A DNA stretch of 64,000 nt from Dehalococcoidia bacterium (GTDB lineage: Bacteria; Chloroflexota; Dehalococcoidia; DSTF01; WHTK01), in contig CBDCMQ010000007.1 in assembly GCA_965219205.1 (NCBI GenBank), positions 3,812-67,811 of the forward strand. The letters run 5' to 3'. Position 1 is the first letter of the stretch. The number at the start of each line of letters is the position of its first letter. The position numbers and the translations under genes were made by a program. This document shows, piece by piece, positions 6,199-60,790 of the stretch. The notes beneath the pieces were generated by a model that had not been told where the DNA came from, did not search any database, and was given only the letters and a program-made list of their open reading frames with translations.

Positions 6199-6377
6199 CA
6201 ACGTATAATGCCGCCAAGTAAGAGCGCTAGTGTCATAAAATCCCGGCAACCTCGTTTAGTAAGATCTTCACAAGCAATCTGGACACGTGTTCCAAGGCAC
6301 CGCTTTCACAAGCCTGCAGCCCAAATCCTCAGCCAACGCCTGCAACCCCATTTAGTAAGAATCTCTAAAAGTAGGAG
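6199..6377 (+). promoter_or_regulatory. Leader of paralog 3: cgtataatgcc then TTTAG-boxes at 6253-6274 and 6349-6377 (catttagtaagaatctctaaaagtaggag)
   Basis: Direct sequence inspection. Confidence 0.4.
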
Positions 6378-6383
6378 CCCAGA

Positions 6384-7712
6384 ATGACTATCGCCTATCG
6401 CAATGCGGATATGTTGGGCATGGTCAACACTGAGACCGGTACGGTCAACCGCCGGATCTTCTCTGACCAGGACATTTATGAGCTGGAGCTGGAGCGGATC
6501 TTCGCCCGAGCCTGGAACTTTATGTGTCACGACTCTCAGATTCCCAACCCCGGTGACTTCTTCCAGACCGTCATTGGTGAGGACCGCGTCATCTGTGTTC
6601 GTGACAACGATGGCATGCCTCAGGTTCTGGTCAATACCTGCCGCCACCGCGGAAACGCCATCTGCCGCGCTGACGAGGGCCATGCCACCTCCTTCATGTG
6701 CACCTATCACGGCTGGACCTACGACTTGAAGGGTGCCCTGGTTGGCGTACCCGGCTTCAAAGAGGTCTACCACGAGGAGCTGGACCGCGAAAACTGGGGC
6801 CTGATTAAGGCGGGCCAAGTCGATACTTATAAAGGTTTCATTTTTGCCAACATGGACCCTGAGGCTCCCTCCTTCCCCGAGTACCTCGGCGATGTCGGTC
6901 GGATGTCGATCGACCTTGTCGCCGAGAAGGGCGAGGAAGTCATCGCGGCCGCCGGGGTTCAGAAATACACGATTCCCTGCAATTGGAAATTCGCCGTCGA
7001 CAACGTCTGGGATTTCTATCACGGCCTTACCCACCAGTCGTCGCTCATGTCCGGTTGGCAGCGGAACGACCGGCGCCGCCCCGGTGATTTGACTACCAAC
7101 TTCAATCGCCCCAACATGGCTCTTCTCGGAGAATACGGTCATGTCATTGGCGGACCGGAAAACAGCCCGGACAACCCACAAAGTGCCATGCGATCCCAGG
7201 AATGGCGTGAGCGGCCCCAGGCCAAGCAGGCCTTGGGGCCGCTTGTCGACCGGATTCCCGCTGGACACCCGCAGATCTTCCCCAACTTCTGGGTGACCGG
7301 CCCGGGACTGGGCCAGGTCAGCATGCGCATGCCCAAAGGGCCGATGAAGACCGAGATCTGGTGGTTCACCTTCCTGGACAAGACCACTCCCGATAAGCAT
7401 CCAGGGCATCTCCAGCAGGCGATGCGCACCTTCGGCCCGGCCGGAATGCTGGAGCAGGATGACGGCGAGAATTGGGGACAGAGCACTCGCGGCATGGTCG
7501 GGACGGCTAGCCAGAAGCATGCCTTGAACTACTCCATGGACATCGGCCGCGGCGAGATCATCGACGACGAACTCAGCCCGCCGCGAATCGAGACATCGAG
7601 TGTTAGCGAGCACCCACAGCTCTGGCATTATCGTGCCTGGTCTGAGTGGATGTCAGCCGAGAGCTGGTCCGACCTCAAGGCCAATCACTCGGAGCCCAAG
7701 GGCCGCGTGTAG
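6384..7712 (+). CDS. Rieske oxygenase alpha subunit, alpha-only type (paralog 3)
   Basis: Same motifs; closely related to paralog 4. Confidence 0.85.
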   Translation: MTIAYRNADMLGMVNTETGTVNRRIFSDQDIYELELERIFARAWNFMCHDSQIPNPGDFFQTVIGEDRVICVRDNDGMPQVLVNTCRHRGNAICRADEGHATSFMCTYHGWTYDLKGALVGVPGFKEVYHEELDRENWGLIKAGQVDTYKGFIFANMDPEAPSFPEYLGDVGRMSIDLVAEKGEEVIAAAGVQKYTIPCNWKFAVDNVWDFYHGLTHQSSLMSGWQRNDRRRPGDLTTNFNRPNMALLGEYGHVIGGPENSPDNPQSAMRSQEWRERPQAKQALGPLVDRIPAGHPQIFPNFWVTGPGLGQVSMRMPKGPMKTEIWWFTFLDKTTPDKHPGHLQQAMRTFGPAGMLEQDDGENWGQSTRGMVGTASQKHALNYSMDIGRGEIIDDELSPPRIETSSVSEHPQLWHYRAWSEWMSAESWSDLKANHSEPKGRV

Positions 7713-7812
7713 CGGCAAGCGAAGGCGACGCGTGTAGCGGCAAGCGAAGGCGACGCGTGTAGCGGCAAGCGAAGGCCGCGTGTAGCGGCAAGCGAAGCCA
7801 AACCGTCTAGCG
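7708..7812 (+). repeat. Tandem direct repeat, about 25-bp unit GTGTAGCGGCAAGCGAAGGCGACGC x 4-5, seeded by the last codons and stop of Rieske paralog 3
   Basis: Visible contiguous repeats; a 2-copy version follows paralog 4 at 9478-9540. Confidence 0.7.
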
Positions 7813-7860
7813 GCAAGCAAGGCCCCAGCCCTTAGTTTCCAAGCCGATTGACAGGCAAAG

Positions 7861-7897
7861 AGAAGCGCGACTTAACGGCCGCGCTTCTTTATTTATT
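7861..7897 (+). terminator. Rho-independent terminator-like hairpin (agaagcgcg..cgcgcttct) + T-rich tail
   Basis: Inverted repeat followed by ttatttatt. Confidence 0.5.
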
Positions 7898-7908
7898 GGC
7901 AGCAGGCG

Positions 7909-8140
7909 TTTGAAAACCTCTCAGAGCGCCGTATAATGCCGTCAAGCAGCGAAGATCGCAGGTGCAACCTTCGCAACGCGCTTACATCTTTCGAAGGCAA
8001 AATCCACCCAACCTCTACTACCGCCTTTAGTAACAATCTTTCCGGCACGCTGCACCTTTTCCTAAACCCCACGTTTAGAATCCCAACGACCCAAAGCTCA
8101 CCAAACCCCTGTAACCCCCTTTAGTGAAAATCTTTAGAAG
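7909..8140 (+). promoter_or_regulatory. Promoter (TTGAAA-17-TATAAT at 7909-7937) and leader of paralog 4 with three TTTAG-boxes (8021-8040, 8071-8087, 8117-8140)
   Basis: Direct sequence inspection; near-identical to region 9611-9705. Confidence 0.45.
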
Positions 8141-8158
8141 CCAAAAGGAGGCCGGAAA

Positions 8159-9487
8159 ATGACAATCGCTTACCACAACGAAGAGATGCTGGCAATGGTG
8201 GACACAGAAAAGGGCATCGTCGACCGTCGGATCTTCTCCGACCAGGACATCTATGAACTGGAGCTGGAGCGGATCTTCGCCCGCGCCTGGAACTTTATCT
8301 GCCACGATTCCCAGATCCCCGAGCCCGGTGACTTCTTCCAGACCGTCATTGGCGAGGACCGCGTCATCTGTGTTCGTGACAACGATGGCATGCCTCAGGT
8401 CCTGGTCAATACCTGCCGCCACCGCGGCAACGCCATCTGCCGCGCGGACGAGGGCCACGCCACCAGCTTCATGTGTACCTACCACGGCTGGACTTACGAC
8501 CTCAAGGGCGCCTTGGTCGGCGTGCCGGGCTTCAAAGAGGTCTACCACGAGGCGCTCGACCGTGAAAATTGGGGCCTGATCAGGGCAGCCCAGGTGGATA
8601 CCTACAAGGGCTTTGTCTTCGCCAATATGGACCCGGAAGCCCCTTCCTTCCCGGAGTATCTTGGTGACGTCGGGCGCATGTGCATCGACATGGTCGCTGA
8701 AAAAGGCGAAGAGATCGTTGTAGCCGCCGGTGTCCAGAAATACACCATTCCCTGCAACTGGAAGTTTGCCGCGGACAACGTCTGGGACTTCTATCATGGC
8801 TTAACCCACCAGTCCTCGGTGATGTCAGGCTGGCAGCGCAATGATCGGCGCCGCCCCGGCGACTTGATAACCAACATCGCGCAGCCCAACATGGCTTTCC
8901 TTGGCGAATACGGTCACGTCCATGGTGGACCTGAGAACAGTCCGAATAACCCGCTAAACTCCATCCGCCCCCAGGAATGGCGTGAGCGCCCCCAGGCCAA
9001 ACAGGCCTTGGGGCCGCTGATTGACCGGATCCCGGCAAGCCACCCTCAGATCTTCCCCAACTTCTGGGTTACCGGCCCCGGCCTGGCCCAGGTAAGCATG
9101 CGCATGCCCAAGGGGCCGATGAAGACCGAGATCTGGTGGTTCACCTTCCTGGACAAAACCACTCCAGAAAAGCATCCGGGGCATTTGCAACAGGCGATGC
9201 GTACCTTCGGTCCAGCCGGTATGCTGGAGCAAGACGACGGCGAGAACTGGGGCCAAAGTACCCGTGGCATGGTTGGCACGGCCAGTCAGCGGCACCCTCT
9301 GAACTACTCCATGAATATCGGACGCGGCGAGATTATCGACGACGAAATCAGCCCGCCTCGCATCGAAACTCCAACTGTAAGTGAGCACCCCCAGCTCTGG
9401 CACTACCGGGCTTGGTCCGAGTGGATGTCAGCCGAGAGTTGGTCCGACCTCAAGGCCAATCACTCGGAGCCCAAAGGCCGCGTGTAG
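8159..9487 (+). CDS. Rieske oxygenase alpha subunit, alpha-only type (paralog 4)
   Basis: Same motifs; 442 aa. Confidence 0.85.
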   Translation: MTIAYHNEEMLAMVDTEKGIVDRRIFSDQDIYELELERIFARAWNFICHDSQIPEPGDFFQTVIGEDRVICVRDNDGMPQVLVNTCRHRGNAICRADEGHATSFMCTYHGWTYDLKGALVGVPGFKEVYHEALDRENWGLIRAAQVDTYKGFVFANMDPEAPSFPEYLGDVGRMCIDMVAEKGEEIVVAAGVQKYTIPCNWKFAADNVWDFYHGLTHQSSVMSGWQRNDRRRPGDLITNIAQPNMAFLGEYGHVHGGPENSPNNPLNSIRPQEWRERPQAKQALGPLIDRIPASHPQIFPNFWVTGPGLAQVSMRMPKGPMKTEIWWFTFLDKTTPEKHPGHLQQAMRTFGPAGMLEQDDGENWGQSTRGMVGTASQRHPLNYSMNIGRGEIIDDEISPPRIETPTVSEHPQLWHYRAWSEWMSAESWSDLKANHSEPKGRV

Positions 9488-9560
9488 CGGCAAGCGAAGC
9501 CGGACCGTATAGCCGCAAGCAAGGCCGCAGCACTTAGTTTCCAGGCCGATTGACAGCCAA

Positions 9561-9598
9561 GAGAAGCGCGACTTAACGGTCGCGCTTCTTTATTTATT
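9561..9598 (+). terminator. Rho-independent terminator-like hairpin + T tract (copy of 7861-7897)
   Basis: gagaagcgcgacttaacggtcgcgcttctttatttatt. Confidence 0.5.
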
Positions 9599-9610
9599 CG
9601 CAGTAGGCGT

Positions 9611-9705
9611 TTGAAAACTTCTCAGAGCGCCGTATAATGCCGCCAAGCTGCGAAGATTGCAGGTGCAACCTTAGCAACGCGTTTACAATCTTTCAAAGTA
9701 GGAGG
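9611..9705 (+). promoter_or_regulatory. Promoter (TTGAAA-16-TATAAT) and leader of paralog 5 with TTGCAggTGCAA dyad and TTTAG-box (cgtttacaatctttcaaagtaggagg)
   Basis: Direct sequence inspection. Confidence 0.45.
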
Positions 9706-9711
9706 CAGGAA

Positions 9712-11040
9712 ATGACAATCGCCTACCGCAACGAAGAGATGCTCAATATGGTCAGCAGTGAGACTGGCACCGTAGACCGGCGCATTTTCTCTGACAGGGA
9801 CATATACGAGCTGGAGCTCGAGCGTATCTTCGCCCGAGCCTGGAACTTCATGTGTCACGACTCCCAGATCCCCAATCCGGGCGATTTCTTCATGACAGTC
9901 ATCGGTGAAGACCGGGTCATCGTCGTCCGCGATGACGATGGCATGGCCCAGGTTCTGGTCAATACCTGCCGCCACCGCGGCAACGCGATCTGCCGGGCGG
10001 ACGAGGGCCACGCCACATCATTTATGTGCACCTACCACGGCTGGACCTACGACTTGAAAGGTGCGCTGGTTGGAGTGCCTGGCTTCAAAGAGGTCTACCA
10101 CGAGGAGCTCGACCGCGAAAATTGGGGGCTGATAAAGGCCGCCCAGGTGGATACCTACAAGGGCTTCATCTTCGCCAACATGGACCCCGAGGCTCCTTCT
10201 TTCCCCGACTACCTCGGCGAGGTCGGCCGCATGGCTCTCGACTCGATGGCGGAACGAGGCGATGAAATCACCATTCTCGGCGGTGTGCAGAAGTACACCA
10301 TCCCCTGCAACTGGAAGCTGGCCGCCGACAACGTCTGGGACTACTACCACGGCATCAGCCACCAGTCCGCCATGATGTCCGGCAGCTATGACGACGAAAG
10401 ATTGCGCAGTTGGGTTTACAGCAAAGATGACTACATGGTGATTCCGGGTGAGTACGGCCACGCCATCGGCGGACCGCAAATAACCGACCTGCAACAAGTC
10501 GCCATGGAGAAGCTCACTCAGATGCACGACTGGCGCGAACGTCCCCAGGCCAAGCAGGTGCTCGGCCCGGTTGGCATGAAGCACGCCGGCCATCCTCAGA
10601 TCTTCCCCAACTGTTGGCTCACCTTTGTCGGTCTCGGCCAAATCAGCATGCGCATGCCCAAGGGCCCCAACAAGACCGAGGTCTGGTGGTTCACCTTCGT
10701 CGACAAGAAAACGCCGGAAAAGCACCCCTTGCACCGGGGAATGGCGATCCACGTCTTCGGCCCCGCCGGCAGCCTCGAACAGGACGATGGCGAAAACTGG
10801 ACCCAGAGCACCATGGGCATGGTTGGCAAGGTAAGTGGGCGCTATCCGCTCAATTACTCGATGAACCTAGGCCGTGGCGAAATTATCAACGAAGAGGGCG
10901 GGCCGCCCCATATCTACTCTAAAGCCGTCAACGAGCATCCCCAGCTCTGGCACTACCGCGCCTGGGCCGATTGGATGGCCGCCGACAGCTGGGGCGAACT
11001 CAAGGCCAACCACACCCGGCTGCCCGACGACCGCCTGTAA
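9712..11040 (+). CDS. Rieske oxygenase alpha subunit, alpha-only type (paralog 5)
   Basis: MTIAYRNEEM start 7 nt after AGGAGG; same motifs. Confidence 0.85.
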   Translation: MTIAYRNEEMLNMVSSETGTVDRRIFSDRDIYELELERIFARAWNFMCHDSQIPNPGDFFMTVIGEDRVIVVRDDDGMAQVLVNTCRHRGNAICRADEGHATSFMCTYHGWTYDLKGALVGVPGFKEVYHEELDRENWGLIKAAQVDTYKGFIFANMDPEAPSFPDYLGEVGRMALDSMAERGDEITILGGVQKYTIPCNWKLAADNVWDYYHGISHQSAMMSGSYDDERLRSWVYSKDDYMVIPGEYGHAIGGPQITDLQQVAMEKLTQMHDWRERPQAKQVLGPVGMKHAGHPQIFPNCWLTFVGLGQISMRMPKGPNKTEVWWFTFVDKKTPEKHPLHRGMAIHVFGPAGSLEQDDGENWTQSTMGMVGKVSGRYPLNYSMNLGRGEIINEEGGPPHIYSKAVNEHPQLWHYRAWADWMAADSWGELKANHTRLPDDRL

Positions 11041-13000: not shown

Positions 13001-13097
13001 AAAAAAGTGAGAGGCCAGTTTCACGGCCGCTCACTTCAAGGCCTTTCGGGCTTCGACTGCCTGGCGACGTGGCGACCGGCCCAGCGGCGCTTCGCCC

Positions 13098-13532
13098 TCA
13101 GGTCTCGATAGTATCAGACGAATCGACCGAGTCCGCATCGGGCTCCACGGTGTCCGCGGGTACCAAAAACTGCGTGTTCATTCGCATGCTGCTCTGAATA
13201 GCCTCTGTGTCTGGCAAAAGGGTTGAGCCAGAACCCTCGTCTCCTGTCAACCTGCCGTGCTCGTCAAGGTAGATGCCCTGAGTGGCAGCGTCTTGAAGGT
13301 TGTCGAGTTCGTGATCGCCCTGTGGCATCAAACCGTCGCTGGCTGGCGCGGTCTGTGCCTGGGAAATGGTTTCGTCGTCAGCGACGACATTATGCTCGCC
13401 CCAGGGGGCGGTTTTGCTGAACTCGTCAGCCTTCGGCAGGGCATCGCCCGTGCCGGAGGCGCTCGATTCCGTGGCGTCCACCTCTCCGGAGGTCTGACGG
13501 CTAAATGGTTTTTTCCAGTTCGGCGGCATCAA
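13098..13532 (-). CDS. Highly acidic low-complexity protein, paralog of upstream gene (unknown family)
   Basis: Starts MMPPNWKK, ends ..LTGDEGSGSTLLPDTEA..; ATGA overlap with upstream gene. Confidence 0.55.
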   Translation of the reverse strand: MMPPNWKKPFSRQTSGEVDATESSASGTGDALPKADEFSKTAPWGEHNVVADDETISQAQTAPASDGLMPQGDHELDNLQDAATQGIYLDEHGRLTGDEGSGSTLLPDTEAIQSSMRMNTQFLVPADTVEPDADSVDSSDTIET

Positions 13533-13999
13533 ACCGGCTCGCTGTCGGTCTCGTCGTAGATGACCACGGATTCGTCGTCACCACCGAGATCGTCCCCACC
13601 TGCTGGCATCTTGAGGAAGGACTCATGACCTCCGAGCGACTTGGTTTCCGGCAGCAAGGTCGAGCCGGCGTCGTCCCCGGTCAACTCGGGGTCCATACTC
13701 CGCGGCCCACCGGGGTCTTTGACCTCATCGGTGAACTCGGCGTCCATGCGCTGCGGCCCACCGGGGTCTTTGACCTCATCGGTGAACTCGGCGTCCATGC
13801 GCTGCGGCCCGCCGGGGTCTTTGACCTCATCGGTGAACTCGGCGTCCATCTTATTAATTGTGACGTTGCCATCGCCATCGGCCGCGTCGTCTACCGCCTG
13901 ACGGGTATCGGCCTGCATTTTGCCTTGCAGGCTATCGGGCTTGGCCGCATCATCGACACTCTCGTTTTTCTTGAAAATATTCCTGATCTTTGGCATCAT
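13529..13999 (-). CDS. Highly acidic protein with three perfect 17-aa repeats (MDAEFTDEVKDPGGPQR), unknown family
   Basis: Starts MMPKIRNIFKK with ATGA overlap onto stop of 13996-15588 gene; C-terminal ..LTGDDAGSTLLPETKS.. shared with next gene. Confidence 0.55.
   Translation of the reverse strand: MMPKIRNIFKKNESVDDAAKPDSLQGKMQADTRQAVDDAADGDGNVTINKMDAEFTDEVKDPGGPQRMDAEFTDEVKDPGGPQRMDAEFTDEVKDPGGPRSMDPELTGDDAGSTLLPETKSLGGHESFLKMPAGGDDLGGDDESVVIYDETDSEPV
13681..13850. repeat. Perfect 51-bp tandem repeat (about 3.3 copies) inside coding sequence
   Basis: gcggcccaccggggtctttgacctcatcggtgaactcggcgtccatgcgct repeated head-to-tail. Confidence 0.75.
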
Positions 14000-15588
14000 C
14001 GCACCGCCTTTTTGGAGATGGCTCCACTGTAACAGGCGTGTAAAGATTGTTGGGCGCGAACCTCGCGGATCGCCACCAGACCGCAAATCGTGGTTGGCAG
14101 AGGGTTCGGCCCTAAGGTCGCGACCAACTCCAGGGTCGATGGGTTGATCAAGATGATGGCACTGCTGGCCCGGTCGGCGATGATGATACCGCGGCCGACC
14201 CGCGCGATGCCACAGGGTTCGGCAGACTCCAGGCCCGCCACCTTGCCGAGGCTGTTGGTCGTCATGTCATCGACGACCAGCAATAACAGTTCGGTCTCGG
14301 CGACGATCAGGACGCGCTTGATCACCGGGTCGTAGCCGGCGGCGTCAATCCTACGGTCGAGATCGCCGACCTGCCGCAATGCACCCTCCTCCTCGATCAG
14401 CAGGATGGCTCCATCGGACTCGAAAATCAGCAGTCCAAGGCTCGCCACGACTGCCAGTCCAACCGCATCGACGCGTCGCTCCAACAAGCCAAGCGGCGTA
14501 CGATGGCCCGTCGCAACGTCCACATTGATAAGCAGCGAGACATCAGAGTTGGAGACGACGGCCAAAACGACCTGGCGGCGCACCACGACACCGGAGGGGA
14601 GCGGGACTCCGCGCGGCACGACGGCTAAAGGCGAGAAGACATCAGCCGTGCCTTCGCCGCTCACGTGAGATAGCGAGCCGTCTTCCGGCTGTAGCCGGAA
14701 GATTGTGCCGTCAGCACCACCGAACCCAACCAGATCAAAGCCTGGGTCCTCCGGGAAGACCAGTGGAGCCAGACTGGCGCTACCAAAAGCCACAGCGGCC
14801 GCACCAGTAAACGCCGTCTTCATGACTAGGCTGGAGCCCGCGTAGATACGCGATGAGTCGTAGAAGGCACGGCGCCCGATCTGCACCGGAGAGCCACGCC
14901 ATCCAGCCTGCCCCAAGACCCGCACAAACTGAACGTAGACGGCGAGCCCCGCGAAGGCCGCGCCGAGCAGCAGCCCCGTCTCGAAGCCATTCTGAATGGC
15001 GCTAGAAACCAGCACCGCGATCAATGAAACAACGGCCAGTCCGCCGCCGCCAACCGCGATTTGGCTGACTAGGCGCGCGGATTTCGCCGAAAGGCCGGCA
15101 AAACGCCGGCGGTCTGGCGCTGAAGCGAAACCGAAACGAAGCTCGCTGACCTGGTGTAACGGGATCGGTGGTGGCCTTGCCGATTGGTTTGGGCCCGGCG
15201 ACCCGCTGCGGTCGAAGCGCCGCCCGAGCGGGGTGAGCGACACTAAACTGCGTAGCTGAGTGAGTGCGGCTACTCCCAGGAAGATGCCGAAGACGACCGT
15301 GACCAGATCCGCCACCGCGAAGGAGCCATCGTCAGCAAGCTCGATGATCTGACCTATGATGCCGACAAGCGCGAATAGTGTTACTGCCAGGAACAGCAAG
15401 CGCAAACCGTGGCGGCGAAAGAAGCTGCGCGAGCCAAGCATGCGCGTTTGGTCAAAATCGAGATCAACCGACGAAGTCGGCCATCCCGATCGGTGCCCGA
15501 GGGCCTGTGCGACGCCGGCTGATCGCGCCCGGCAAAGCCGTTCGGCGATCAGACTGTTGCGCGACCGATCAGGCATCTTCCCTGTCAA
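13996..15588 (-). CDS. Membrane-anchored protein with C-terminal YVTN-type beta-propeller-like repeats (hypothetical)
   Basis: N-terminal TM helices, then four repeats of the type ..SNSDVSLLINVDVATG.. / ..ESDGAILLIEEEG.. / ..AIILINPSTLELVATLG. Confidence 0.5.
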   Translation of the reverse strand: MTGKMPDRSRNSLIAERLCRARSAGVAQALGHRSGWPTSSVDLDFDQTRMLGSRSFFRRHGLRLLFLAVTLFALVGIIGQIIELADDGSFAVADLVTVVFGIFLGVAALTQLRSLVSLTPLGRRFDRSGSPGPNQSARPPPIPLHQVSELRFGFASAPDRRRFAGLSAKSARLVSQIAVGGGGLAVVSLIAVLVSSAIQNGFETGLLLGAAFAGLAVYVQFVRVLGQAGWRGSPVQIGRRAFYDSSRIYAGSSLVMKTAFTGAAAVAFGSASLAPLVFPEDPGFDLVGFGGADGTIFRLQPEDGSLSHVSGEGTADVFSPLAVVPRGVPLPSGVVVRRQVVLAVVSNSDVSLLINVDVATGHRTPLGLLERRVDAVGLAVVASLGLLIFESDGAILLIEEEGALRQVGDLDRRIDAAGYDPVIKRVLIVAETELLLLVVDDMTTNSLGKVAGLESAEPCGIARVGRGIIIADRASSAIILINPSTLELVATLGPNPLPTTICGLVAIREVRAQQSLHACYSGAISKKAVR

Positions 15589-15824
15589 CTTCGGGAGTTT
15601 CTTTGGCCGCGTCTATAAAGAAGCTGGTGCTCGCGGCCAGCGGCGCAGCATCGGCAAGAAGGTCCGAGAGTTTCGCCCGGCCAAAGGCGAAGCCGCCTGC
15701 TGGATCGGCGCTGATCAGGGTCAAAACCTGAGATGGCTGATAGAAACGGCCCAGGTACCTGAGCAAGAGCCCGAAATCGAGTGCTGAACTGTCGCTCGGC
15801 GCCGCGAGCCCGAAGGCGGCGAGG

Positions 15825-16386
15825 TTAAGAACCAGAACCGGGAGCCCGCGAATTTAAGGAGAGGTCGTTGGTTACCAGCCAGTGCGCATCGAAAACCTGG
15901 AGACCAAATAGGCCAACGTCGACGCCAATGTCGTTTATCAGAACGTCGATCGCGGAGACGCCGGGCAGTATTTGCACTGTCAACCCGAGTCGCCTGCCCT
16001 CTATCACCAGGGCCCGAGCGACCGCTATTGAGGAACAAGTGATTCCCCGGGCACAGCAGAACCACAGGGCGTTCCACCGCCGTATGTTCGATCAGCTGCG
16101 CCACAACCTCCGAATAGATGTCCTCAAAAGGCCGCTCAGCTGTAAAGCTGGCGTCGAGATCGACGACCTTTACCCGCATTGACTTGAGCAATGCGCGCGG
16201 TGCGGCCGCCATTCCAATGGCGAAGACCTTGCCGTAGCGCGCGATAACACGCTGGGTTTCGACCGTGAGCTCCAAACGATCGTGCACACCGCTGCCCGCC
16301 AGAATGATATGCGGCACGGCCGCAGATCCGGAGGCAGCACCGCCGGCCTTTCGGTTTTTGCCAAAGGGACCAATGCTGGGCATCAC
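15825..16386 (-). pseudogene. Tetrapyrrole-methylase-family (SAM-dependent) gene, frameshifted near 16000-16030
   Basis: ..HIILAGSGVHDRLELT..VVLLCPGNHLF.. in one frame continues as ..LGLTVQILPGVSAIDVLINDIGVDVG.. in another. Confidence 0.35.
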
Positions 16387-31582: not shown

Positions 31583-32917
31583 ATGACCATCGCTTACCGC
31601 AATGAAGAAATGCGCCAAATGGTCAATCACGAAAATGGCACCGTTGACCGCCGGATTTTCAATGATCAGGAAATATACGGACTAGAACTTGAGCGTATTT
31701 TCGCGCGGGCCTGGAACTTCATGGCCCACGATTCGCAATTGCCCAACCCGGGCGACTTCTTCATGACCTTCATCGGCGAAGATCGTGTGATTTGCGTTCG
31801 TGACAACGATGGCAATCCTCAGGTGCTCGTAAACTCCTGCCGGCACCGAGGCAACGCCGTCTGCCGGGCCGAAGAAGGCCACGCCACATCGTTCATGTGC
31901 ACCTACCACGGCTGGACCTACGATCTAAAAGGTGATCTTGTAGGAGTACCTGGCTTCAAGGAGGTCTACCACGAGGAACTTGACCGCGAAAACTGGGGTC
32001 TGATCAAGGCGGCACAGGTGGGCACCTACAAGGGTTTTATTTTCGCCTGCATGGATGCGGAGGCCCCGGACCTCGATGACTTCCTCGGTGAAGTCGGCCG
32101 GATGAGCATCGACTTCATTGCCGAGCGCGGTAACATCGCCGCTGTCCCCGGCATCAGCAAATACACAATCCCCTGCAATTGGAAGTTCGCCGCCGACAAC
32201 GTCTGGGATTACTACCACGGCATCACCCACTCGTCCGCCGGGATGTCCGGTTTCATGAGCGGCGGCAATCGCAGTCGCACAATGACACCAGGATCCCTCT
32301 TCACGCGGCCCCAGATAACCATGCTCGGCGAGTACGGCCACGCTATCGGCGGACCCTCGTACAACGAAGCGACCGCAGAGGCCACCAGTCACTCCGCCTT
32401 TAGCGAGGACTGGCGCAAGCGGCCCGAAGCCCGACAGGCGCTCGGCCCAGCCGGACTCAAAATCCACGGCCACCCCCACGTCTTCCCCAACTTCTGGGTC
32501 ACGCAGTTCGCGCAGATCAGCTTGCGAATTCCCAAGGGACCCGATTCCACTGAGATTTGGTGGTGGACCTTTATCGAAACTGACGTGCCCAATGAAACGT
32601 CTAAGGCCCAACAGCGCCGATCCACCCACACTTTCGGCGCCGCCGGAATGCTGGAGCAGGACGATGGCGAAAACTGGGGCCAGAGCACGATGGGATCTAA
32701 GGGGGTAGCCAGCGGCCGCTATCCTTTGAATTACTCCATGAATCTTGGACGCGGAGAAGTAATCGACGATGAACTCGGCCCGCCGCGCATCGAAACAGAT
32801 GCGGTCACCGAGCACCCTCAGCTATGGCACTACCGCGCCTGGGCTGACTGGATGGCGGCCGAGAACTGGTCGGAACTCGTGACCAACCACACGCCGGTAC
32901 CGCGAGACTTGGTCTAG
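31583..32917 (+). CDS. Rieske oxygenase alpha subunit, alpha-only type (paralog 6)
   Basis: MTIAYRNEEM..CRHRGNAVCRAEEGH..CTYHGW; 444 aa. Confidence 0.85.
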   Translation: MTIAYRNEEMRQMVNHENGTVDRRIFNDQEIYGLELERIFARAWNFMAHDSQLPNPGDFFMTFIGEDRVICVRDNDGNPQVLVNSCRHRGNAVCRAEEGHATSFMCTYHGWTYDLKGDLVGVPGFKEVYHEELDRENWGLIKAAQVGTYKGFIFACMDAEAPDLDDFLGEVGRMSIDFIAERGNIAAVPGISKYTIPCNWKFAADNVWDYYHGITHSSAGMSGFMSGGNRSRTMTPGSLFTRPQITMLGEYGHAIGGPSYNEATAEATSHSAFSEDWRKRPEARQALGPAGLKIHGHPHVFPNFWVTQFAQISLRIPKGPDSTEIWWWTFIETDVPNETSKAQQRRSTHTFGAAGMLEQDDGENWGQSTMGSKGVASGRYPLNYSMNLGRGEVIDDELGPPRIETDAVTEHPQLWHYRAWADWMAAENWSELVTNHTPVPRDLV

Positions 32918-37527: not shown

Positions 37528-38856
37528 ATGACCATCGCCGACCGCCACACTGAAATGCGCGGACTCGTGGACCCGGAAACTGCTTTGGTCGACCGCCGGA
37601 TCTTCTCTGACCAGGAGATCTATGAAATGGAATTGGAACAGATCTTCGCGCGCGCCTGGAACTTCATGTGCCACGACTCCCAGATCCCCAATCCGGGCGA
37701 TTTCTTCATGACAGTCATCGGTGAAGACCGGGTCATCGTCGTCCGCGATGACGATGGCATGGCCCAGGTTCTGGTCAATACCTGCCGCCACCGCGGCAAC
37801 GCGATCTGCCGGGCGGACGAGGGCCACGCCACATCATTTATGTGCACCTACCACGGCTGGACCTACGACTTGAAAGGTGCGCTGGTTGGAGTGCCTGGCT
37901 TCAAAGAGGTGTATCACGAGGAACTCGACCGCGAGAACTGGGGACTGATCAAGGCTAACACGATCTCCTACAACGGCTTTGTCTTCGCCTGCTTAGACCC
38001 AGAAGCACCAGAGCTTTACGACTACCTCGGTGAAGTCGGGCGCCTAAGCCTCGACTACCTTGCCGTCCGCGGGGAAATCCAAGTCGTTGGCGGCGTGCAG
38101 AAGTACACCATTCCCTGAAACTGGAAGCTCGCGGCCGATAACGTCTGGGACTACTACCACACAACTACCAGCCATGCGTCATCGATCGCCGCGCGTCCCA
38201 CCGGCAACCGCAGCGGTATGAGCATAATCCAGGACCCCAAACGCTTCACCCAACCTCACATAGTCATTCTTGGCGAATACGGCCACGCGATCAGTGGGTA
38301 CCACGTCACGCCGGACTCGGATTCCCTGGGCGCGATCAACGCTCGCAATGACGCCTGGCGCGAGACTCCGGAAGCCAAACGGGTTCTCGGGCCTGTGGGA
38401 GGCAGCCACGCCGGCCACCCTCACGTCTTTCCCAATATGTGGATGACGGGCAACCAAATCAGCATGCGCTTTCCCAAGGGCCCCACTACGACCGAAATCT
38501 GGTGGTTCACCCTTCTGCAGAAAGAGCTTTCTCCGGAAGACAGGAAAACCAAGGTTCAGGGAGCCAACCGCGCCTTCGGACCTGCCGGAATGCTGGAACA
38601 GGAAGACGGCGAAAACTGGGGCGAAAGCACCAAGGGATCTGGCGGAACTATCAGTTGCCGGTGGCCGCTCAATTATTCGATGAACCTCGGTCTGGGCACG
38701 GTAATCGATGACGAGACCGGCCCGCCCCATATCGAGACCCGGATTAACGAGCACGCCCAACTCTGGCTGTACCGCGCTTGGGCCGACTGGATGAGTGCAG
38801 ACAGTTGGTCCCAGCTCAAGGCCGACCACACTCCCGTCCCCCGGGACACGGTCTAA
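37528..38856 (+). pseudogene. Rieske oxygenase alpha subunit paralog 7 with single in-frame TGA (38116-38118) at the conserved Cys of TIPCNWK; otherwise intact
   Basis: MTIADRHTEM..CRHRGNAICRADEGH..TIP*NWKLAADNVWDYYH.. same frame continues to 38856. Confidence 0.7.
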
Positions 38857-59430: not shown

Positions 59431-60790
59431 ATGACAATCGCCTCTAGAAGCGAAGAAATGCTGCGGACCGTGAACCTCGAGACCGGTACCGTTGACCGGC
59501 GAATTTTCTTCGAACAAGACATCTACGACTTGGAGATGGAGCGTATCTTCGCCCGCGCCTGGAATTTCATGGCTCATGATTCGCAAATCCCCAACCCCGG
59601 TGACTTCTTCATGACTTTCATTGGCGAGGACCGCGTAATCTGCGTGCGCGATAACGAAGGAAAGCCCCAGGTGCTGGTCAACAGCTGCCGTCACCGCGGC
59701 AACGCCATCTGCCGGGCCGACGAGGGCCACGCAACTAGCTTCATGTGTACCTACCACGGCTGGACTTACGATCTAAAAGGCGCTCTTGTCGGCGTGCCGG
59801 GCTTCAAGGAGGTCTATCACGAAGAACTCGACCGGGGAGAGCTGGGGCCTAATCAGGGCCACGCAGGTCGACACCTACAAGGGATTCATTTTCGCCAATT
59901 TGGACCCTGAAGCCTCTGGCCTTGAAGGATACCTCGGCGAAGTCGGCAACATGTGCCTTGACCAGTTGGCCGAACGCGGTGATATCCGTATCGTCGCCGG
60001 CATTCAGAAATACACTATTCCTTGCAACTGGAAGTTTGCTGCCGACAATGTTTGGGATTTCTACCACCCAAGCATCACTCACGTATCCTCTTTTATGGCC
60101 GGCAACTGGCGCAAAGCGGCGCCAGGCGCCGAGCCGCAGGCCCCGGCCCGTCAGGGCCATACGATCAACAGCCTCGAGCGAGCGCATGTCGTCGTCCTCG
60201 GTGAGTACGGTCACGCACTCTCTGGTCCCAAGCTCGACGAGCAGGGATTGGAAATGCGCCGCAATTTCGGCGGCGACAATCGCTGGCGCGAGCGCCCCGA
60301 AGTCAAGGCGACTCTCGGACCGGTCGGGCTCAAAGTCAGCGAACATCCCCAAATCTTCCCCAACCTCTGGCTCGCGACCGGCGGCGGCCAACTCAGCCTC
60401 AGGCTGCCCAAGGGTCCCGGCAAAACTGAGATTTGGTGGTTTACATTGATCGACAAGGATACAGAGGCGGAGATGCACGAAGTTCAGAGGCATCGCGCCA
60501 CTCATGTTTTCGGCCCGGCAGGCATGCTGGAGCAAGAGGATGGTGAGAATTGGGGCGAAAGCACTCGCGCCAATGCCGGCGTCGTTAGCCGTCGATTCCC
60601 GTTGCACTATGCAGCGGGCCACGGCCACGATGAGGTCATCGAAGACGAAGGCGGCCCACCCTATGCCGAAACGATGGTCAACGAGCACGCCCAACTCTGG
60701 CACTATCGCGCCTGGTCGGAATGGATGGCCGCCGATAGCTGGCAGGACCTGAAAGCCACTCACTCGCAGGTGCCGCGCGACCGACTTTAG
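59431..60790 (+). pseudogene. Rieske oxygenase alpha subunit paralog 10 with +1 frameshift in a G-run near 59835-59840 (possible sequencing error)
   Basis: ..ELDRGELGPNQ.. instead of ..ELDRENWGLIRATQVDTYKGF; correct continuation found in 59786-60790 frame. Confidence 0.55.

Follow-up and report, generated by a model that had tools for sequence, protein, structure and literature searches.

A borosin-like methyltransferase gene forms a conserved Chloroflexota module with genes for acidic, predicted disordered proteins and a membrane-bound beta-propeller protein

The DNA considered here is a stretch of 64,000 nucleotides (nt) from a Dehalococcoidia bacterium (contig CBDCMQ010000007.1), called the window in the following. 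Three successive open reading frames (ORFs), A, B and C, occupy positions 13098-15588 of its minus strand, as indicated by the ORF listing and the raw sequence. An earlier interpretation of the window, made without database searches and called the sequence-only reading below, had described these three consecutive genes, which are indeed present, as an operon of a membrane-anchored propeller protein and two acidic proteins. The three-gene operon was too small. A fourth, translationally coupled gene directly upstream of A (16383-15569, minus strand) had been overlooked; it encodes a methyltransferase and is the only component with informative homology. Comparison with related loci indicates a module that appears to be restricted to the Chloroflexota and consists of the methyltransferase, one or more acidic and presumably disordered proteins, and a membrane protein with five predicted transmembrane (TM) helices and a beta-propeller. 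The reading that we tentatively prefer, while leaving it considerable room for doubt, is that of a divergent system for protein methylation, similar to the split borosins, in which B and C, the two acidic proteins, are the candidate substrates. The operon contains the following features.

15569 to 16383, minus strand: methyltransferase gene, TP_methylase fold, similar to borosin N-methyltransferases (NMTs), with two +1 frameshifts (three-frame reading; homologues in loci L005, L006 and L019)
13996 to 15576, minus strand: gene A, 526 amino acids (aa), with the ORF extending to a TTG at 15588 (ORF list, start-site comparison, hydropathy, AlphaFold2)
13529 to 13999, minus strand: gene B, 156 aa, acidic and predicted disordered protein with the N-terminus MMPKIRNIFKK (ORF list, GC content of the three codon positions, composition, AlphaFold2)
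13098 to 13529, minus strand: gene C, 143 aa from ATG 13529 (144 aa from TTG 13532), acidic and predicted disordered protein with the N-terminus MPPNWKKPFSRQ (ORF list, composition)
13013 to 13028, minus strand: hairpin and T-run resembling a terminator, about 70 nt past the stop codon of C; end of the operon, converging with a HIT gene

The methyltransferase gene and gene A share 8 nt, from the ATG of A to the stop codon of the methyltransferase (ATGCCTGA). An overlap of equal length exists in L019 (GTGGCTGA), the closest relative locus, and in the P0010 contig, which is of the window type. This recurrence is one reason why A most likely starts at ATG 15576 instead of TTG 15588; the others are that a strain variant (P0007) has an Ile at the internal Met chosen by gene callers and that the region upstream of this Met is conserved in P0008 and P0013. 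The ORF does reach the TTG that yields the previously given length of 530 aa, but the likely product comprises 526 aa. Of the two ATGA overlaps postulated for the other junctions, that between A and B exists at 13999-13996, but the B/C junction at 13532-13529 reads TTGA (sequence TTGATG), with a TTG start overlapping the TGA stop. Alternatively, an ATG at 13529-13527 overlaps this stop codon by 1 nt (TGATG). The length of 144 aa given for the third protein applies to the TTG start, and 143 aa to the ATG. All four operon genes can start with ATG CCN for Met-Pro (window positions 16383, 15576, 13996-13999 and 13529; MPSIGPF, MPDRSRN, (M)MPKIRN and MPPNWKK), and both acidic proteins of L019 likewise begin with MP, a pattern that may be due to chance in a GC-rich genome.

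The ORF 15721-16386 starts as a TP_methylase and then turns into nonsense, with the homology continuing in other frames. After repair of the frameshifts, the resulting 270-aa protein matched PF00590 with an E-value of 1.1e-11 (45.5 bits, cut-off 27.8), and the homologue from L005 did so with 1.6e-07. Single methyltransferase sequences retrieved borosin NMTs from the PDB at 9e-8 and 3e-9. With a profile built from Chloroflexota enzymes only (A7), the borosin NMTs dbOphMA, MroMA, OphMA and SonM were found with E-values between 5.6e-14 and 3e-10, in matches that extended over about 200-220 residues, and the next PDB match, diphthine synthase, followed at 0.41. As judged from these comparisons, the Chloroflexota enzyme is a divergent sister within the borosin NMT clade.

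Two positions interrupt the reading frame of the methyltransferase gene in the window.

16022 to 16023, minus strand: frameshift 1 (FS1), an extra G, with GG instead of the single G in L006 and L019 (homologue comparison)
15838 to 15842, minus strand: frameshift 2 (FS2), one extra base within CCCGG (homologue comparison)

L001, L002 and L006 represent near-identical strains of the window species. FS1 is common to the window and L001/L002 and absent in L006, and FS2 is common to the window and L006. A 58-nt deletion in L001/L002, at about window positions 15848-15893, removes FS2 and restores the frame at the expense of 19 codons; in L001 (9595-9606) imperfect direct repeats of 12 bp, GGTCTCCAGGTT and GGGCTCCCGGTT, lie on either side of this deletion. 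Indel errors of the assemblies are also visible elsewhere, in split genes for ABC and major facilitator superfamily (MFS) transporters and in a frameshift of gene B in L006. Since the methyltransferase gene contains two frameshifts and these assemblies contain other indel errors, the system in the window genome is either recently inactivated or mis-assembled at FS1 and FS2. Automated gene calls in sister contigs delivered only methyltransferase fragments of 118-185 aa, and because the enzyme gene is interrupted, its connection to the operon is invisible in the annotation.

Recent inactivation would mean that the module is a decaying remnant in the window genome, with a methyltransferase pseudogene and with A, B and C no longer under the ancestral selection. 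Both frameshifts and the further deletion in L001/L002 agree with such a decay, as do 10 nonsynonymous versus 2 synonymous changes in A between strains. Many flanking housekeeping-type genes, however, also display more nonsynonymous than synonymous changes, so the ratio between strains is uninformative with respect to selection. The 58-nt deletion in L001 restores the frame, about 90 codons past FS2 are free of stop codons, A, B and C are intact, and the assemblies carry indel errors at other sites. Decay of the module is thus improbable.

The methyltransferase gene, a gene for an acidic protein and an A-like gene are located on the same strand in all nine distinct loci with enough upstream DNA (L005, L007, L009, which equals L014, L011, L012, L015, L016, L019 and the P0010 contig). 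Examination of the co-occurrence of the gene set, which the sequence-only reading had suggested as a check, therefore revealed a constant association, with the methyltransferase as an additional member. The order of the genes differs. The window-type loci, the P0010 contig and L019, were retrieved by an exact look-up starting from A homologues. In the P0010 contig, a gene for a 629-aa protein without a Pfam match is followed by the genes for a TP_methylase, an A-like protein and a 155-aa protein, again without a Pfam match. L019 encodes an intact methyltransferase of 272 aa, an A-like protein with its gene split by a frameshift (in an assembly of 5-fold coverage), and then two acidic proteins. 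In the distant branch, composed of L005, six GTDB loci (L007-L012) and four metagenome loci (L013-L016) that were found with the distant-subfamily alignment A5, the methyltransferase gene precedes that of an acidic protein of 251-837 aa and the A-like gene. A search of the GTDB genomes and the metagenome collection with the window-type A alignment yielded no related loci. Flanking genes beyond the three module types were not conserved between loci. All six taxonomically labelled loci originate from metagenome-assembled genomes of Chloroflexota (Anaerolineaceae, Dehalococcoidia and Ca. Amarobacter).

Within the distant branch, the acidic proteins clearly constitute one family, with BLAST E-values as low as 1e-79. 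They keep an N-terminal 11-mer (MALNISRFFKR, MALNLSKLFGR, MAFKLSRIFGN), many short motifs, the C-proximal DADAP(T/S)TL(V/I/L) and an acidic tail. The large members (L007 3706-5904, L009 6095-7999, L015 699-2186 and 5488-7980, L016 349-1575, L011 5871-7985) appear as mosaics of short motifs, among them GFMMQDGELYPRG, LIDTSTGEIVWA, GYTATDDLWKFR, VKWEGPDFDASK, NEVSIESIEIAHEG and LPEVGDEV, connected by Gly/Asp/Pro linkers. L015 possesses two paralogous acidic proteins, one encoded upstream of a gene for a methyl-accepting chemotaxis protein and one in the module, which echoes the B/C pair.

Two motifs of the large acidic proteins resemble, below threshold, those strands that are most conserved in the domains of the phage tail tube (gp19) and spike (gpV). 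A link to phage tails or contractile injection systems was considered on the basis of sub-threshold Pfam matches to Phage_base_V and T4 gp19 and of the motifs LPEVGDEV and NEVSIESIE, and it was abandoned, with the PHROGs and PDB searches empty. DUF4280/PAAR-like and terminase-like ORFs, recognized by eye in L009/L014 (1067-1486 and 1483-2826) about 4 kb upstream of the module, occur in one lineage, are not conserved neighbours, and are probably an unrelated prophage remnant; they were likewise discarded as support for a phage connection.

Within the two acidic proteins of the window, three elements were compared.

13678 to 13849, minus strand: 51-bp (17-aa) tandem repeat of B, unit MDAEFTDEVKDPGGPQR (Tandem Repeats Finder: 3.4 copies, 95% matches)
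13643 to 13684, minus strand: C-proximal motif LTGDDAGSTLLPET of B, aa 106-119 (pairwise and motif comparison)
13206 to 13250, minus strand: C-proximal motif LTGDEGSGSTLLPDT of C, aa 94-108 (pairwise and motif comparison)

Protein B has an isoelectric point (pI) of 4.07, 25.0% Asp plus Glu and a net charge of -23; C has a pI of 4.05, 19.6% Asp plus Glu and a net charge of -21. The claim of more than 25% acidic residues in both is therefore approximately right for B, but too high for C. B comprises 156 instead of 157 aa, and its three supposedly perfect repeats are two identical 17-mers of MDAEFTDEVKDPGGPQR and a third copy that ends with RS and not with QR. The low hydrophobicity ascribed to B and C was borne out, with no hydrophobic segment in either, and disorder of B agrees with its single-sequence AlphaFold2 model, which has no secondary structure, a pLDDT of about 55 and a pTM of 0.11 and is weak evidence in this respect. 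The putative paralogy of B and C relies on a local match of 27 aa, for which a database of only about 10 proteins gave an E-value of 0.011-0.02, and on the similar N-termini, which are basic and not hydrophobic.

Among 5.8 billion protein clusters, a word-indexed search found homologues of B and C only in their own strains. This, together with the low-complexity composition of both, could mean that both ORFs are spurious and lie in intergenic DNA rich in GC. The GC contents at the first, second and third codon position (0.66/0.40/0.75 for B and 0.60/0.49/0.69 for C) resemble those of neighbouring genes and not those of their own shifted frames, however, and the start and stop codons are tightly coupled. 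The 51-bp repeat changes its copy number in frame, from three copies in the window (156 aa) to four in the strain L001 (173 aa; L001 11593-11815), and genes for acidic proteins exist in every related locus. Moreover, L019, with an A protein 45-53% identical to that of the window, encodes in the same position a 156-aa protein with a pI of 4.05, 24% Asp plus Glu and the N-terminus MPRFIDRRQSDPF. It contains SGDSGSTLLQG at the relative place of LTGDDAGSTLLPET in B and LTGDEGSGSTLLPDT in C. In six-frame translations, GSTLL occurred in the window only in B and C and in L019 only in this 156-aa ORF; 0.32 occurrences would be expected per window and 4e-4 per protein. A second acidic, repeat-containing frame of L019 carries AGSPSNLLTP. 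The sequence-only reading had named absence of conservation in relatives as the sign of spurious acidic frames; L019 contains positional counterparts that match in size, pI and GSTLL. A non-coding origin of B and C is consequently very improbable, and we conclude that both are genuine, fast-diverging genes that keep only short motifs. When all six frames of the window were scanned with a hidden Markov model of the C-proximal motif, derived from the nine loci other than the window, B and C scored no higher than background, so that a connection of GSTLLP to the distant motif DADAPTTLVDLH is only suggestive.

Gene A encodes the membrane component of the module, with the following parts.

14755 to 15405, minus strand: TM region of A, aa 58-274, five hydrophobic segments (Kyte-Doolittle scan, Lys/Arg distribution)
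14842 to 14934, minus strand: most conserved motif of the A family, YVQFVRVLGQAGWRGSP....RRAFYDSxR, aa 215-245, in the basic loop between TM4 and TM5 (alignments A1 and A2)
14062 to 14739, minus strand: beta-propeller domain of A, aa 280-505, with the near-invariant cysteines C455 and C498 (AlphaFold2, Foldseek, alignment A2)

The five hydrophobic segments are located at about aa 58-80, 87-111, 171-193, 201-221 and 254-274. The N-terminus and the loops 112-170 and 222-252 are rich in Lys and Arg, and the loops between TM1 and TM2 and between TM3 and TM4 are short and acidic. Because of these Lys/Arg-rich parts, the N-terminus is predicted inside and the C-terminal domain outside of the cell. 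The family alignment comprises an N-terminal segment that is conserved, the TM helices, the strongly conserved basic loop, which reads QFxRxARRSAFRGRP..RAFRDSxRxW in the distant branch, and the C-terminal beta-rich domain. Modelled by AlphaFold2 with the family alignment, the C-terminal approximately 225 residues (aa 280-505) were all-beta with 20 strands and a pLDDT of 80-94, and the TM part had a low confidence. In the PDB, Foldseek matched this domain to nidogen (6.5e-08, target TM-score 0.56), LRP2, NHL proteins and YncE. The TM helices and the propeller fold attributed to A are thus supported, but the assignment to YVTN-like repeats is not: the window protein has no match to the propeller families YVTN, DUF4394 or DUF6923 of Pfam at E<=1 and none to an NCBIfam family. 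Relatives of A display weak, sub-threshold or marginal Pfam matches to DUF4394, DUF6923 and PQQ_2.

The fold of the C-terminal domain corresponds to that of DUF4394/DUF6923 and six-bladed YWTD/NHL propellers, but the N-terminal half with its five TM helices and the conserved basic loop has no described counterpart; a literature search on DUF4394 found no paper. A few secreted relatives with signal peptides share only the propeller with A. Only 25 proteins of the A family were found at E<=1e-3 when 1.84 billion representatives were searched exhaustively with HMMER. The A proteins constitute a new family of membrane proteins that combine five TM helices with a basic loop and a propeller, and no Pfam model exists for them. 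As assumed before, none of A, B and C belongs to a known family at the sequence level, with no match in Pfam, NCBIfam or PHROGs.

With the enzyme, the acidic proteins and the membrane protein characterized, a function of the module in protein methylation can be considered. The split-borosin-like reading is preferred because large acidic proteins with repeats serve as precursors in validated split borosin systems. These precursors reach more than 600 aa and contain acidic tandem repeats, for instance 10 copies of DVIELSSGGEL in RceA, or DVDV and TEVX elements; they are methylated once per repeat or in long runs, and Asp and Glu are among the modified residues (Imani et al., bioRxiv 10.1101/2021.12.24.474128). 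In the module, acidic proteins with repeats or motifs adjoin the methyltransferase in all nine informative loci and in the window. The arrangement resembles that of the split borosins, above all type V (RceM/RceA) and types VI-VIII: the enzyme, with a TP_methylase fold and about 250-270 aa, stands alone and is encoded beside separate acidic repeat proteins that have no other recognizable domains.

According to this model, a cytoplasmic, S-adenosylmethionine-dependent enzyme with TP_methylase fold would bind the acidic proteins as in split borosin types V-VIII, perhaps via their short basic N-terminal peptide, and would methylate residues in their repeated or conserved motifs. Once modified, the acidic proteins may be handled by the membrane protein A on the cytoplasmic side of the membrane, with anchor, exporter or sensor as candidate roles of A. 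The basic, Arg-rich cytoplasmic loops of A could hold the polyanionic proteins, which is pure inference. The acidic proteins, once proposed as partners presented by the propeller protein, are possible partners of A, although the predicted topology places the propeller outside and the acidic proteins inside of the cell.

Evaluation of this model needs to consider that a number of observations weigh against it, first of all the active site of the enzyme. In an alignment with MroMA and the Haloarcula and Bradyrhizobium enzymes, just one of the four SonM residues Y58, R67, Y71 and Y93 was kept in the Chloroflexota enzymes, the equivalent of Y71. Y58 is replaced by Leu or Phe, R67 by Phe, Tyr or Ala (an Arg precedes this position by two residues), and Y93 by Pro, with PGNH or PGHP instead of the YGHP motif that holds Y93. 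In SonM, the exchange Y93F costs less than 2-fold, and R67 and Y71 matter most (PMC8429565). Because only the Y71 equivalent is retained, membership in the validated borosin enzyme family is not established.

The only NCBIfam model matched by the enzyme is that of the YabN N-terminal methylase domain (NF052436; cd11723, the sister group of the borosin NMT domain), at 4e-13 and with 49 bits far under the model cut-off of 525 bits. The window enzyme has no MazG domain, which sets it apart from YabN, and genuine borosin-type enzymes match NF052436 even better, so this match does not discriminate between the two. YabN of B. subtilis presumably carries a PGHP-type motif instead of YGHP, as do the Chloroflexota enzymes. 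All four borosin active-site residues are kept in the nearest plasmid-borne relative, on the Haloarcula plasmid NZ_CP010533.1 (L017 4728-7879). The unannotated cluster at this site comprises a 71-aa peptide with a hydrophobic C-terminus ending in GIQIAGIVLPSSEA, the methyltransferase and a prolyl oligopeptidase, a typical borosin layout.

Also at variance with a split-borosin-like function, B and C had no sequence similarity to any validated borosin precursor and no significant BLAST similarity to the acidic proteins of the other loci, and the methyltransferase gene was frameshifted in every strain of the window species examined. The partner with five TM helices and a propeller is always present in the module, but the literature search found no described borosin cluster with a gene-A-like protein and no paper connecting borosins to Chloroflexota clusters of this type. 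The phylum is another difference from the known split borosins.

Membrane-spanning signalling proteins with GGDEF and a periplasmic TPR domain are frequent partners of borosin methyltransferases, by linkage or by fusion, in what is called type X, and 56% of the clusters contain GGDEF (bioRxiv 10.1101/2021.12.24.474128). Type X resembles the module in the coupling of a methyltransferase to a membrane protein that displays an interaction domain outside of the cell; in the module, however, the membrane protein is encoded by a separate gene, its outer domain is a beta-propeller, and a GGDEF or other output domain is lacking. These ties of borosin methyltransferases to membrane signalling would suit a module for transmembrane signalling, in which the propeller of A senses an external ligand, the acidic proteins serve as cytoplasmic adaptors on the Arg-rich loops, and methylation tunes their charge or binding. 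The conserved cytoplasmic elements of A, an N-terminal LDQ..S..L and the basic loop QFxRxARxxxxRGxPxxxxxRAFxDSxR, point in the same direction, and a loose analogy exists to the methylation of receptors in chemotaxis. Topology is nevertheless the sole basis of this proposal, and neither A nor any conserved neighbour possesses an output domain such as a kinase, GGDEF, helix-turn-helix or sigma/anti-sigma domain. We regard signalling of this kind as unlikely.

The outward orientation predicted for the propeller leads to a further explanation, in which the acidic proteins are exported or displayed as surface polyanions for binding of cations or minerals, A acts as exporter or anchor, and the N-terminal peptide is a non-classical export signal. 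Some of the secreted propeller relatives with signal peptides carry PKD or FG-GAP domains, and the 11-mer represented by MALNISRFFKR and its variants, conserved in the distant subfamily, might be such a signal. The sequence-only reading had favoured secreted polyanions with a metal- or mineral-binding or dehydrin-like function, and this interpretation received no support. No acidic protein contains a Sec or Tat signal or a hydrophobic segment; in B and C, the maximum Kyte-Doolittle mean over 19 residues was -0.05 and 0.20, respectively, and there was no twin arginine. Dockerin- or EF-hand-like DxNGDG loops exist in some acidic proteins of other loci, including a weak Dockerin_1 match at 0.01 in that of L009; of DxDxDGxIxxxE-type loops, B has a single loose match (DGDGNVTINKMD) and C has none. 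Such loops are sporadic, present in 3 of 14 acidic proteins with only 2 matching the strict pattern, and were not taken as an argument for cation binding. Five TM helices without an ATPase or known channel domain do not constitute a known exporter design, and the invariable methyltransferase partner would be left unexplained. Export or display of surface polyanions is accordingly also a poor candidate for the function of the module.

A bolder possibility combines the enzyme with either of these functions and abandons the idea of a natural-product pathway. The borosin-like methyltransferase and the membrane protein with five TM helices and a propeller might together process fast-evolving acidic proteins that carry an N-terminal targeting peptide, which would mean a new leaderless route of export or display or a methylation-controlled signalling system. 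This would be rather unlikely, albeit less so than export or signalling as formulated above.

Outside of the operon, the window contains many paralogous genes for alpha subunits of Rieske/ring-hydroxylating dioxygenases with a DNA identity of 75-86%, at about 6320-11040 and with further copies near 537-1014, 2112-2732, 31583-32250, 37587-38160 and 59490-60066; three of the genes are in tandem. MFS transporters, an amidohydrolase_2 and a meta-cleavage-type alpha/beta hydrolase are encoded close to these Rieske genes. Expansion of Rieske-type catabolic genes is typical of some marine Chloroflexota. In comparison to strain L006 (L006 17778), the window carries a 23-nt insertion in the intergenic region between two Rieske genes. 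No match to a tRNA or Rfam family was found in the window.

To understand the biological meaning of the module, it has to be considered that more than 1,600 clusters with bacterial borosin-type methyltransferases are predicted, that few of them have a known product or role, and that their connection to membrane signalling is unexplained. In the literature searched, the phylum Chloroflexota had not previously been tied to borosins. The proteins of the A family and the acidic proteins, which keep short motifs while the remaining sequence turns over, are new families without family models. Should the enzyme not methylate peptide backbones, the module would be even further from anything known. With one enzyme, an acidic substrate candidate and a single membrane protein, it has a fixed and minimal composition of three parts, can easily be reconstituted and could show the purpose of backbone methylation at the scale of whole proteins.

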